From: an uncultured SAR86 cluster bacterium
GTDB taxonomy: Bacteria; Pseudomonadota; Gammaproteobacteria; Magnimaribacterales; AG-339-G14
Reading direction: 5' to 3'
Length of the DNA stretch: 64,000 nt
Assembly: GCA_902635045.1 (NCBI GenBank)
Contig: CACPMT010000003.1
Span: forward strand, 7,128 to 71,127
Under the pieces are notes generated by a model, which ran no database searches, was not told where the DNA came from, and saw nothing but the letters and a program-made list of their open reading frames with translations. Made by a program: the position numbers and the translations under genes. Positions 32,605 to 35,510 of this stretch are shown in pieces. Positions within the stretch are counted from its first letter, which is position 1, and every line of letters starts with the position of its first letter.

Positions 32605-33477
32605 ATGACTTTTTTGGATGGAGCCTTGGGCAGCATTCTTCTTCACCGAGCAAATAAATCATCTACAGGCTTATGGTCGGCACAATTTTTGCTTAATGAT
32701 CCCGCTGCCATTACAAAGCTTTATGAAGAATACGTGAGCATTGGCTCAGACTTGATAACGACCAATACCTACTCAACTATTCCAAGTTATTTGGATAAAG
32801 AAAATATTTCTACTCAAATGTCAGAACTTATTGATATTGCTGGCAGGCTCGCAAGAGAAGTTGCCGATAAACACGAAAACGTAAGAGTCGCGGGATCGCT
32901 TCCTCCTTTAGAAGAGAGTTACAGGCCCGATTTAGTTTTAGATGAAACCAAAGCTTTACCAATTTATAAAACTTTAATAGAGGGGCTCTTGCCCTATGTA
33001 GATATTTTTTTATGTGAGACCATTTCATCAATTCAAGAAACCAAAAATGTTTTAAAGGCTTTAGATCTGCACAATAAAAATATTCCTACTTGGCTTTCAT
33101 GGACCCTCAAAGAAGATAAAAAAAATGTTTTGCGAAGTGGGGAATCAATCGAAGAGGCTTTTGTTTTTGCAGAGCAATATAATCCTGAGGCTTATTTATT
33201 CAACTGCACAGATCCCAATGCTATTTCATCTGGTATAGATGTATTGCGAAATCTTACTGATAAACCAATTGGGGGTTACCCCAATGTTTTTTCTGTTCCT
33301 GATGGTTGGACTTTGGATAATGATGTCGAGACACTTAAAAGTGATTTGACTAAGGAAAGTTTTTCAAGCTTTTGTCAAGTTTGGCAGGAAAAGGGCGCAT
33401 CCATTTTTGGCGGTTGTTGTGGCATTGGTCCAGAACTTATGGCTGATATGATTGCGACACTGAAGCAGCAAAATTAA
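32605..33477 (+). CDS. Homocysteine S-methyltransferase family protein
   Basis: LDGA.G, TTNTY, GSLPP, FNC and GGCCG Zn ligands. Confidence 0.9.
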   Translation: MTFLDGALGSILLHRANKSSTGLWSAQFLLNDPAAITKLYEEYVSIGSDLITTNTYSTIPSYLDKENISTQMSELIDIAGRLAREVADKHENVRVAGSLPPLEESYRPDLVLDETKALPIYKTLIEGLLPYVDIFLCETISSIQETKNVLKALDLHNKNIPTWLSWTLKEDKKNVLRSGESIEEAFVFAEQYNPEAYLFNCTDPNAISSGIDVLRNLTDKPIGGYPNVFSVPDGWTLDNDVETLKSDLTKESFSSFCQVWQEKGASIFGGCCGIGPELMADMIATLKQQN

Positions 33478-33532
33478 ATTTTCGCTTACTATCTAAATCT
33501 ATTTCTTGTACTATTGTCGTCCCATTTGTAAT

Positions 33533-33609
<77 letters not shown>

Positions 33610-33686
33610 TTTTTTTCAATTTTGATACAAAAAGTTTCTTCTTAGACACGTTTACATTAATTTTTTCAAGTAAAATTTTCACTGTT

Positions 33687-35249
33687 TTGCATAGATTTTT
33701 TTATTTTTTAACATTCTTCTTTTCGATAGTTCTTCTATCTCATCCAAATTCTTCTATTGAGAAGTATCCTGACGAAATGGCACACGCACCAACACCTCTG
33801 CCAGATAGAGTAGTCTTAACTTGGAATGATGATCCTGCAACAACCCAAGCAGTAACATGGAGAACTGATACATCTATCGAAGTGGGGCTTGCACAGCTTG
33901 CTATAGCAAATGCAAATGGGAGGGCGCTTAAGCCAGATGAGTTTAAAGCAGAAACAAGTTACTTCGAGAGTGATATAAATGAGGCTCATTACCATAGTGT
34001 TACTTTTAAGAATCTTCAACCCAATACTCTATATGCTTATAGAGTTGGAGATGGAGTAAATTGGACAGAGTATTATCACTTTAAAACTGCAAGCTCTTCA
34101 GAAGATCCCTTCAGTTTTATTTATTTCGGTGACGCACAAAATGAAGTGAGAACTCATTGGTCCAGAGTTTTTAGGGAAGCTTTTCGTGATGCACCAAGAG
34201 CTGCATTTACATTACATGCTGGTGATTTAATTGATGAACACAATATGGACTCACAATGGGGTGAATGGCATCAGGGTCCTGATTGGGTTAATGGAACAAT
34301 TCCTGTTATAGCAACCCCTGGCAATCATGAATATCAAAAAGATTCTGAAACTAAAAGAATATGGACAAACAAAGATGGTCAACCTATAAATATCGAAATT
34401 GAATCTTTAAACAATGATAATCCAGAGATCTTAATTGTTGATATCGAAGACTTTCAAAATAGAACAGGAACAATAAAGATTAAAGATTCTGGAGAAATAA
34501 TAGATGCCGATGAGGGCATTGAATTAATTACAGGGTATAAAAAAGAAGAACTCATAAATAAACCAATTTTGGGTGGCAAAGCTCCACTATATGATCGTCT
34601 TCAAAATCCGGATGGAATTCAAAAGGTTAGCAATCATTGGAGACCACAATTCTCTTTTCCAATCCAGAATGTTCCCGATGAACGATTAAGAGAGACTTTG
34701 TACTATCTGGATTACCAAGGTGTTCGTTTTATATCGCTTGATTCAAATATTGAAATGGAGATTCAAGTAGATTGGCTTAGAAAAGTTCTAGAAGAGAATG
34801 ATAATCGTTGGACAATAATTACATTTCACCATCCACTATATTCTCCTGCATCAGATCGAGATAATTTAGAAATGCGTCAACTATGGAAACCATTACTTGA
34901 TGAATTTAAAGTTGATCTTGTTTTAAGCGGGCACGATCATACCTACTCTCGTACTGGTCTAATTGATGCAAAAAAAGTTGAAAATATTCCAACAGGTTAT
35001 CAGCAGGCTTATGATCCAGAAATCGGCACTGTCCATGTTGTTTCAGTAAGCGGACCAAAAATGTATGAAATTACTAAAGGTTTATATGCAAAAAAGCTAG
35101 GAGAAAATACTCAGCTCTATCAAATTATAGATATTAACAAAGATAATCTAAGGTTCCGCGCATATAAGGCAACGGGAAAGCTATATGATGAATTTCTTCT
35201 TAAAAAACGTAAAGAACAACCAAATTTATTAATTGAAACTAATCCTTAA
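33687..35249 (+). CDS. Secreted metallophosphoesterase (purple acid phosphatase-like, FN3-like N-domain) with ~95-aa insert
   Basis: Signal peptide; VTWRT and YAYRVG N-domain; FGDAQ, AGDL, GNHEY, FHHP and SGHDH metal motifs. Confidence 0.88.
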   Translation: MHRFFYFLTFFFSIVLLSHPNSSIEKYPDEMAHAPTPLPDRVVLTWNDDPATTQAVTWRTDTSIEVGLAQLAIANANGRALKPDEFKAETSYFESDINEAHYHSVTFKNLQPNTLYAYRVGDGVNWTEYYHFKTASSSEDPFSFIYFGDAQNEVRTHWSRVFREAFRDAPRAAFTLHAGDLIDEHNMDSQWGEWHQGPDWVNGTIPVIATPGNHEYQKDSETKRIWTNKDGQPINIEIESLNNDNPEILIVDIEDFQNRTGTIKIKDSGEIIDADEGIELITGYKKEELINKPILGGKAPLYDRLQNPDGIQKVSNHWRPQFSFPIQNVPDERLRETLYYLDYQGVRFISLDSNIEMEIQVDWLRKVLEENDNRWTIITFHHPLYSPASDRDNLEMRQLWKPLLDEFKVDLVLSGHDHTYSRTGLIDAKKVENIPTGYQQAYDPEIGTVHVVSVSGPKMYEITKGLYAKKLGENTQLYQIIDINKDNLRFRAYKATGKLYDEFLLKKRKEQPNLLIETNP

Positions 35250-35268: not shown

Positions 35269-35487
35269 CTAGACTGTTGGATCTGAATCGATTTCGTATG
35301 AAAAAAGCTTAAAACTCTGCATAGCATACAAAACCAGCAAACTTAAAAGACTGATTGACTGGTGAAGTACAAATACTTGAAAGATCATTAGATTTGAATT
35401 GAATAAACCTGAGAAAAATAAAATAGAGATCAAAAGAGAAATTTTGATAGTTTCGTTAATATAATTTAGTTGATAACTCTCAAACCC
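35269..35487 (-). pseudogene. 5'-truncated remnant of a sterol desaturase/alkylglycerol monooxygenase-family gene
   Basis: Manual translation GFESYQLNYINETIKISLLISILFFSGLFNSNLMIFQVFVLHQ...DPTV* aligns without gaps to the C-terminus of 48752..50008 (12 identities in 39 residues by hand); no start codon at its 5' edge. Confidence 0.65.
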
Positions 35488-35510
35488 TTCTATTACAGGG
35501 TTTTTTCTTT
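35482..35510 (+). terminator. Hairpin plus T-run just inside the right repeat
   Basis: AAACCCT-tctattac-AGGGTTT followed by TTTCTTT. Confidence 0.5.

Follow-up and report, generated by a model that had tools for sequence, protein, structure and literature searches.

A PAS-related insert of permuted appearance in a purple-acid-phosphatase-like phosphoesterase of a SAR86 cluster bacterium

A gene encoding a metallophosphoesterase similar to purple acid phosphatases has been analysed in a 64,000-nucleotide stretch of DNA, here called the window, from an uncultured SAR86 cluster bacterium (assembly GCA_902635045.1, contig CACPMT010000003.1, positions 7,128 to 71,127). The catalytic domain of the encoded protein is split by an insert of about 88 residues. 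Sequence comparisons settle, in our view, that its second half shares ancestry with the N-terminal part of PAS domains. The insert is very probably PAS-derived; its first half is probably of PAS origin too, which would make the element truly permuted, and circular permutation of a PAS domain is on the whole moderately supported. Few sensor modules have been studied as much as PAS domains. If the reading holds, natural permutation of a PAS fold, loss of the pocket helices and insertion into a catalytic domain outside the cytoplasm occur together in a single protein. Neither a natural circularly permuted PAS domain nor a PAS-like element in an enzyme of the purple acid phosphatase type was found described in the open-access literature searched, where the permuted PAS/LOV domains of the papers listed are engineered constructs. 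No precomputed PAS annotation was found among the 120 homologues listed.

An insert related to PAS domains

The initial annotation had placed about 95 extra residues at 34335-34625, corresponding to amino acids (aa) 217-313, downstream of the metal motif GNHEY. The sequences that it quoted, ETKRIWTNKDGQPINIEIESL...ILIVDIED and GTIKIKDSGEIIDADEGIELITGYKKEELINKPI, joined by FQNR, are present as written. The excess length stands, but its size is about 88 residues, as calculated from the distances separating GNHE from HW..QF. Eighty related loci were fetched from species-representative genomes, in which at least 562 of 574 matched stretches encode relatives; four (L064, L072, L075 and L077) were too truncated to be used. 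The two anchors are 104-109 aa apart in insert-bearing loci, and 17-21 aa apart in four anchor-matched insert-less loci (L065, L069, L070 and L078). Five more loci (L068, L073, L074, L076 and L080) are insert-less by direct reading; overall, the insert is present in 67 of the 76 usable loci and absent from nine. Insert-less are also P0107 and P0117, metagenomic proteins of 445 aa, 71% identical to the window protein, which read GNHEYFQT-FDRIQ. Canonical purple acid phosphatases and natural insert-less relatives alike lack the insert. The segment is standard in this subfamily, but it is an insert in comparison with the canonical enzymes.

Sixty-five non-identical family inserts were scanned singly against Pfam, and matches were counted at an expectation value (E) of 1 or less. 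PF00989 was matched by 33 inserts, PF13426 by 25, PF08447 by 13 and PAS_11 by seven. The best E of the PAS families is 3.2e-8, and no unrelated Pfam family was matched by more than three of the 65 members at the same threshold. All the PAS matches span only profile positions ~4-47. In the window protein, aa 262-294 match positions 4-36 of PAS_9, at 15 bits when the whole protein is scanned and at 18.3 bits when the insert is scanned alone. TIGR00229 sensory_box was returned at 17.3 bits, under cut-off, by an NCBIfam scan which gave sub-threshold matches only. Two PAS alignments were used for profile comparisons. The first includes 25 PAS_9 domains from a class-level genome sample, one locus being left out, the second 24 PF00989 domains from a phylum-level genome sample. 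The second half of the insert is aligned by hhalign to the Aβ-Bβ-Cα-Dα columns of both with a probability of 97% (P 2.5e-11 and 1e-10, respectively). As in canonical PAS/LOV domains of the S-box type (PF00989, PF13426; TIGR00229), the motif G.I..vD.g...lTG(Y/F)...EL.G is accompanied by a strand-strand-helix-helix succession, and the second half thus features the N-terminal PAS elements Aβ, Bβ, Cα and Dα together with the S-box motif. The likeness of this part to the N-terminal half of PAS, noticed in the initial annotation, is borne out by the Pfam, hhalign and profile searches.

When the insert profile was compared to PDB sequences, DosP (E 0.0013, profile 47-85 on chain residues 28-66), 3ewk, YtvA, ZTL and 3bwl were retrieved, and the matches listed are mostly PAS, apart from polyubiquitin, some ubiquitin variants and a single PepSY propeptide row. 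The polyubiquitin chains, which fill the top rows, were rejected as an artefact of summed repeats, each worth 4-7 bits and with a per-stretch E of 64-770. A search of 1.84 billion representative proteins gave 22,863 matches at E ≤ 0.001, with long multi-PAS proteins, hosting up to 31 matched stretches, at the top. The 150 matches listed from this search are filled by multi-PAS proteins through summed second-half matches; among them only P0143, P0219 and P0242, all of them members of the family or fragments, match the whole module (profile 1-103), and this list shows the module in no other context. In multi-PAS proteins with long matches (profile 17-85), the strands of the first half are placed on the preceding Iβ and linker helix; such matches are poor evidence for an origin from tandem PAS domains. 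An ESM Atlas look-up of aa 219-306 returned mostly PAS fragments with scores of ~0.8, under the level at which the tool takes a match as more than a lead.

The full protein was modelled by AlphaFold2 on 63 aligned relatives (mean predicted local distance difference test, pLDDT, 85.8; predicted template modelling score, pTM, 0.79). In the model the module is made of strands 223-227, 233-245, 248-255, 260-266 and 270-274, and of helices 276-282 and 286-289, with pLDDT blocks of 76-95. The same elements are predicted when the insert is folded alone (mean pLDDT 88.7, pTM 0.78; five models ranging from 69.4 to 88.7), and the structure prediction called for by the initial annotation hence depicts a confidently folded, not disordered, segment. 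The supposed short turn FQNR is a tight turn between two strands in both models. The predicted order of the elements is that of a circularly permuted PAS devoid of the Eα/Fα pocket helices. Fold searches were less informative. Foldseek found no PDB match to the insert model at E ≤ 0.001 (best 0.27) and aligns in sequence order only; Foldseek and VIA-align returned generic meanders and no PAS, being sequence-order-bound and so blind to permutation. The structural search once suggested has in this sense returned no PAS, but in an order-dependent comparison only.

Order of the two halves

We take the elements of the insert to be, in PAS nomenclature, Gβ-Hβ-Iβ, the turn FQNR and Aβ-Bβ-Cα-Dα. The order is hence G-H-I-A-B-Cα-Dα, and not the canonical A-B-helices-G-H-I. 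The PAS sheet is five-stranded and antiparallel, with strand order 2-1-5-4-3; because Aβ pairs with Iβ in this sheet, a hairpin at the Iβ-Aβ junction is geometrically natural.

The first half was aligned by hhalign to the Gβ-Hβ-Iβ columns of both PAS alignments (77-109 of 120, and 84-116 of 121), with scores of 20.9 and 21.5 bits (P 5e-4). The register is that expected, with KDG opposite rKDG and the final D opposite that of DIT, and the KDG hairpin resembles the PAC strands of canonical PAS. No column shuffle of the first alignment reached the first-half score (0/200; mean 8.8, standard deviation 2.1, maximum 19.3), nor did any in a second set of shuffles of the second alignment (0/300, maximum 21.2). 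The reversed first-half profile scores 8.9, and 50-column windows taken outside the insert score at most 13.0 with the first alignment and 13.9, among 36 windows, with the second. First halves scanned alone match PAS_9 in three of 65 cases. The L031 first half does so at E 0.0035, residues 3-36 lying on profile positions 55-90 of 103, and those of L055 and L056 at E 0.022, on positions 60-93; L031 also matches positions 68-101 of 113 of PF00989. All these positions correspond to the PAC end of the profiles, and PAS_9 (positions 55-93) is the only Pfam family matched by first halves of more than one clade. Swapping the halves, a check suggested at the outset, extends the alignment to PAS from 34-35 to 95-97 columns, and raises the hhalign scores, from 55.0 to 70.4 with the first alignment and from 53.0 to 63.7 with the second.

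Several observations weigh against a permuted PAS. The Pfam scores of the window insert are under the curated cut-offs (PAS_9 18.3 vs 27 bits; PAS 15.8-15.9 vs 22.6 bits). No PAS match was found for 62 of the 65 first halves scanned alone, the hhalign probability for the first half is only 31%, and the first set of 100 shuffles of the second alignment has a maximum of 23.1, above the first-half score, so that at least one of the 600 shuffles reached it. The module departs from PAS domains in three defining features, namely order of the elements, presence of Eα/Fα and, for the insert of the window alone, profile cut-off. No helix is predicted after residue 289 inside the insert, and the stretch aligned to Eα/Fα is part of the enzyme core, as its FDRIQ is retained in insert-less P0107. 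In comparison with canonical PAS domains, the halves are swapped, Eα and Fα are gone, ~70 structured residues are found instead of ~100-110, and the element sits inside an enzyme domain, probably outside the cytoplasm. The resemblance of the first part to a PAC motif, as initially proposed, is right for place and register in two PAS alignments, with a signal which is modest and three Pfam matches out of 65. Similarly, the proposed permutation is moderately supported, by element order, second-half homology and first-half register, but the PAS that would have been permuted is incomplete.

It is unlikely, though this is the alternative that survives best, that only half of the module is PAS, i.e. 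that the second half stems from an N-terminal PAS fragment whereas the three strands before it form a beta extension of other origin, with no true circular permutation. The weak signal of the first half, including the low hhalign probability, the many first halves without a match and a shuffle scoring 23.1, would suit such an origin, as would the generic meanders given by the fold searches. Against it, the first half aligns where a PAC part should, and in register, with each of two independent PAS alignments, scores well above windows of the same protein, and matches in more than one clade the PAC end of PAS_9, and no other Pfam family. That the whole insert is a lineage-specific beta-rich loop without PAS ancestry is hardly credible, since sub-threshold window scores and fold searches without PAS are set against 33 of 65 diverse members matching PAS families singly (best E 3.2e-8), a P of 2.5e-11 in hhalign, and 22,863 proteins at E ≤ 0.001, among which multi-PAS ones rank first.

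A permuted PAS-type fold has a precedent in engineered LOV2 (bioRxiv 10.1101/2021.05.19.444876). According to that source, new termini and closure of the I-to-A junction are compatible with the fold; the construct differs from the insert because it is man-made, keeps the whole domain and the flavin, and serves a different purpose.

The host enzyme and the putative role of the module

In a Pfam scan the 520-aa protein matches Pur_ac_phosph_N (PF16656) at E 2.4e-19 and 70.1 bits, over a cut-off of 30, and Metallophos (PF00149, calcineurin-like phosphoesterase) at E 6e-17 and 63.1 bits. The best Foldseek matches of the full model are plant purple acid phosphatases (1xzw_B, E 3.1e-23, template modelling scores 0.61/0.73). 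Both the domain pair and the fold of purple acid phosphatases are hence found. Membership in the PhoD family was considered and dropped, as the match to 2yeq (E 3.5e-15) is weaker. Metal ligands of purple acid phosphatases are Asp, Asp, Asn, His, His, His in the motifs GD, GD, GNH, H and GH.H, and the corresponding residues D149, D180, N213, H214, H381, H382, H416 and H418 are identical in all of the 63 aligned sequences. The Tyr ligand of motif II (GDxxY) is the source of the purple colour of these enzymes. Position 183, which aligns with the Tyr of GDLSY, is D in the window protein; N is found in 37 of the 63 sequences, D in 26, Y in none. Because the Tyr ligand is missing, the protein is filed as purple-acid-phosphatase-like, and not as a strict member of the group.

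Plant high-molecular-weight purple acid phosphatases, such as those from sweet potato (1xzw) and kidney bean (4dhl/2qfp), similarly combine a fibronectin-like domain, a metallophosphoesterase domain and five metal motifs. They match the window protein on both flanks of the insert, and have been solved as dimers, the assembly also predicted here. They have no counterpart of the 88-residue module, and alignments stop at aa 216-218 to resume at aa 358. The window protein in turn is bacterial, lacks the Tyr ligand and has a signal-like N-terminus. Homologues feature a hydrophobic N-terminal stretch, mostly ending with AH at the same place as in the window protein, and the model has a helix at residues 2-17 followed by low-confidence residues 19-35. 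The protein is probably exported by Sec, plausibly to the periplasm, as suggested by the reading of the N-terminus and by receptor genes neighbouring the loci of relatives. Features of the gene and the insert are listed in Table 1.

Table 1. Coordinates of the phosphoesterase gene and of its parts in the window
Feature	Residues (aa)	Position	Strand	Basis or remark
Phosphoesterase gene, purple-acid-phosphatase-like metallophosphoesterase	1-520	33687..35249	+	520-aa open reading frame (ORF), TTG start, stop included; ORF list and translation
Signal-peptide-like N-terminus (MHRFFYFLTFFFSIVLLSH)	1-19	33687..33743	+	Direct reading
N-terminal fibronectin-like domain of purple acid phosphatases	39-134	33801..34088	+	Pfam PF16656
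Metallophosphoesterase catalytic domain, split by the insert	160-420	34164..34946	+	Pfam PF00149
GNHEY, metal motif III, immediately 5' of the insert	212-216	34320..34334	+	G, N, H and E invariant in the 63-sequence alignment
Insert, wide sense	217-306	34335..34604	+	~88 of these residues missing from insert-less relatives
First half of the insert, three strands resembling Gβ, Hβ and Iβ ('PAC')	221-255	34347..34451	+	Model strands, hhalign, Pfam
Tight turn FQNR, linking the Iβ-like and Aβ-like strands	256-259	34452..34463	+	Non-strand residues in both models
Second half of the insert, strands followed by short helices, two of each, resembling Aβ, Bβ, Cα and Dα (S-box)	260-292	34464..34562	+	Model, Pfam, hhalign
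HWRPQF, conserved core segment after the insert	317-322	34635..34652	+	H317 in 61/63, W318 in 63/63 sequences

Inserts are 19-76% identical to that of the window, whole proteins 51-83%. The insert evolves faster than the enzyme core, mean column identity being 43% versus 62% in the alignments. R224 is conserved in 54 and W226 in all of 57 insert-bearing rows. Other conserved positions are K229, G231, I271, D275, T282, G283, L289 and P300-L301-x-D303-R304. Conserved positions are thus those of the PAS structural signature and of both junctions, in contrast to the variable three strands in the middle, and no pocket-like set of residues is discernible.

In the explanation that we regard as the best, the protein would be a two-metal phosphoesterase of purple acid phosphatase architecture, lacking the Tyr ligand and exported by Sec, in which an 88-residue module would have been inserted three residues after the catalytic Asn-His pair (Asn213-His214) of motif III. 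The module would descend from a cytoplasmic-type PAS domain, circularly permuted and truncated. Its path would run first through Gβ-Hβ-Iβ, then through a tight turn and Aβ-Bβ, to end after the short Cα and Dα helices, the enzyme core taking the topological position of the missing Eα/Fα. As the module starts three residues after Asn213-His214, we infer that its base is at the rim of the active site. There it could act as a rigid cap selecting which phosphate esters gain access to the metals; conserved Arg224 and Trp226, at the base, would be candidate substrate contacts. The cap would be an accessory, the core enzyme persisting without it in several lineages. Most likely, then, the module shapes substrate access or specificity, and is neither a cofactor-binding sensor nor a dimer interface. 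The explanation taken whole, from export to an active-site cap made of a permuted and truncated PAS, is about evenly poised between right and wrong. A bolder variant is rather unlikely. In it, the former ligand face of the PAS sheet would be turned toward the two-metal centre, and the PAS remnant would be a wall of the substrate pocket, in a natural permuted 'PAS-in-enzyme' chimera possibly responsive to a second ligand. If true, ligand recognition by a sensor fold would have been turned into substrate recognition by a hydrolase.

Elements tuning the activity of related enzymes are known. In mammalian purple acid phosphatase, activity is restrained by a repression loop, an extra element which separates motif III from motif IV and covers the active site. 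This loop (2bq8 is among the Foldseek matches) is short and protease-sensitive, whereas the module is a folded domain, and no homology relates the two. In wheat purple acid phytase (PAPhy) two loop inserts line the active-site cavity and confer specificity for phytate, as reported (PMC9073318). The PAPhy motifs 4 and 5 of cereal purple acid phytases are inserts of the metallophosphoesterase domain which tune specificity, the mechanism that we infer for the window module. They are loops of ~20-40 residues located elsewhere in the domain, Leu209-His229, before motif III Asn258, and Asp418-Gln455, and not a PAS-derived, independently folding module.

The possibility that the exposed sheet is a docking surface, binding another protein such as a TonB-dependent receptor, or forming higher oligomers, and so placing the enzyme where substrates enter, is improbable. 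PAS sheets often mediate protein contacts, and a TonB-dependent receptor gene is found directly upstream, on the same strand, at five of 17 loci (L001, L036, L042, L053 and insert-less L073), and within two genes at two more (L032 and L004). The upstream receptors are 930-1000 aa long, and feature a CarboxypepD_reg domain in Opitutales. Such neighbours suggest a role in nutrient import through the outer membrane. However, the receptor is directly upstream also of an insert-less gene, that of L073, and the surface strands of the module are poorly conserved. The window gene itself has no adjacent receptor gene, which tells against docking and against the uptake context alike. A homodimer was predicted for aa 36-520 with a score of 0.85, the best of three controls scoring 0.00; in the three runs contact agreement was at least 100% and partner pLDDT at least 91. 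Among proteins of solved structure, 20 of 30 pairs and one of 23 single chains attained this mark, counts which hold roughly, as an alignment made for this analysis was used. None of the named interface residues (74-80, 115-131, 153-171, 196-204, 457-459, 474-477 and 494-498) falls within 217-310, and this hints that the module is not the dimer interface, a statement which concerns the named residues only. The homodimer result may, on the other hand, reflect memory of the solved plant dimers.

Improbable too, and ranked last among the proposed roles, is that the module is a sensor or allosteric gate, in which binding of an extracytoplasmic small molecule or ion opens or closes access to the active site. 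Its PAS ancestry, its location directly after motif III, and the fact that PAS-like domains are common ligand sensors are in line with such a role, which the initial annotation had favoured. The comparisons lend it no support. The pocket helices Eα/Fα have no counterpart, the conserved residues are those of the PAS signature and of the junctions, with no pocket among them, the strands are the most variable part, and the module apparently disappeared at least four times from genes that retained the core. Conservation pattern, missing pocket helices and repeated losses are the grounds on which a cap is preferred to a conserved small-ligand sensor.

Distribution, losses and gene surroundings

The insert-bearing form is found in marine Gammaproteobacteria (SAR92/Porticoccaceae, K189A, Pseudohongiella), in Opitutales and in two Bacteroidales. 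The phosphoesterase family is widespread in marine Gammaproteobacteria and Opitutales, as indicated by the stretches (at least 562) found in species-representative genomes. A tree of 85 sequences, insert columns removed, was built by quick IQ-TREE (LG+G4, SH-aLRT) and rooted on the insert-less paralogues located upstream of L067 and L071, which are on a very long branch. Insert state changes six times along the tree, at least four changes being forced by starred branches; shuffled labels require 12.4 changes on average, and none of 500 shuffles is as low as six. Insert-less rows are nested among insert-bearing ones. L069 forms a 100%-supported group with the insert-bearing L034, L027 and L030, and the other insert-less rows are a five-row Opitutaceae group, P0107/P0117, L070, L068 and L065. 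The end points of the deletions differ, and include FQT-FDR, FKTED-GT, AKLDEKDAAAPR and others. The simplest reading of the tree is that the insert was gained once, long ago, is ancestral in the clade, and has been repeatedly and cleanly lost, at least four times. The direction, gain followed by losses, is deduced from the nesting of insert-less rows, the root being uncertain. Natural deletions of this kind are ready controls for the contribution of the module to the scavenging of organic phosphorus at sea.

In the window genome (1.11 Mb in nine contigs, 88.5% complete) PAS_9 is not matched over cut-off, nor PF00989 at E ≤ 1e-12, and the module therefore did not arise by recent copying within the genome. 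The only PAS_9 match, sub-threshold at 22.8 bits, is at C1:38259-38423. The G+C content of the window is about 27-40%, and the genome is streamlined.

Two of the loci deserve mention. L003, a contig of 3,977 bases titled Euryarchaeota archaeon UBA169, encodes a protein 69% identical to that of the window, and groups with gammaproteobacterial L079 with a support of 99; mis-binning of the contig seems a likelier explanation than an archaeal origin of the gene. In L064 (match 1265-2724) the frame including GNHE stops after 287 aa, but the protein match continues to residue 518. The stop may result from a frameshift or an assembly error in that single-cell genome.

Neighbours of the phosphoesterase gene in the window are a gene for tRNA-Ile, a homocysteine methyltransferase-like ORF and an amidase-like ORF. 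The tRNA-Ile gene (GAT; 33533-33609, plus strand) precedes the phosphoesterase start by 77 bases in the same orientation, and a minus-strand 'ORF' of 246 bases (33437..33682) is merely the translated tRNA region. A terminator-like hairpin with a T run is found at 35482-35503 (plus strand), ~230 bases past the phosphoesterase stop; two such sites occur in the scanned stretch, versus 1.2 expected from shuffles. In the Bacteroidales loci L067 (1214-4477) and L071 a second, insert-less purple-acid-phosphatase-like gene, about 30-33% identical, is located immediately upstream. The L067 paralogue is a frame of 1088 aa that also includes the N-terminal domain of neutral/alkaline ceramidases. The Bacteroidales phosphoesterase pair is flanked by YdjC-like and GH2 glycosidase genes.

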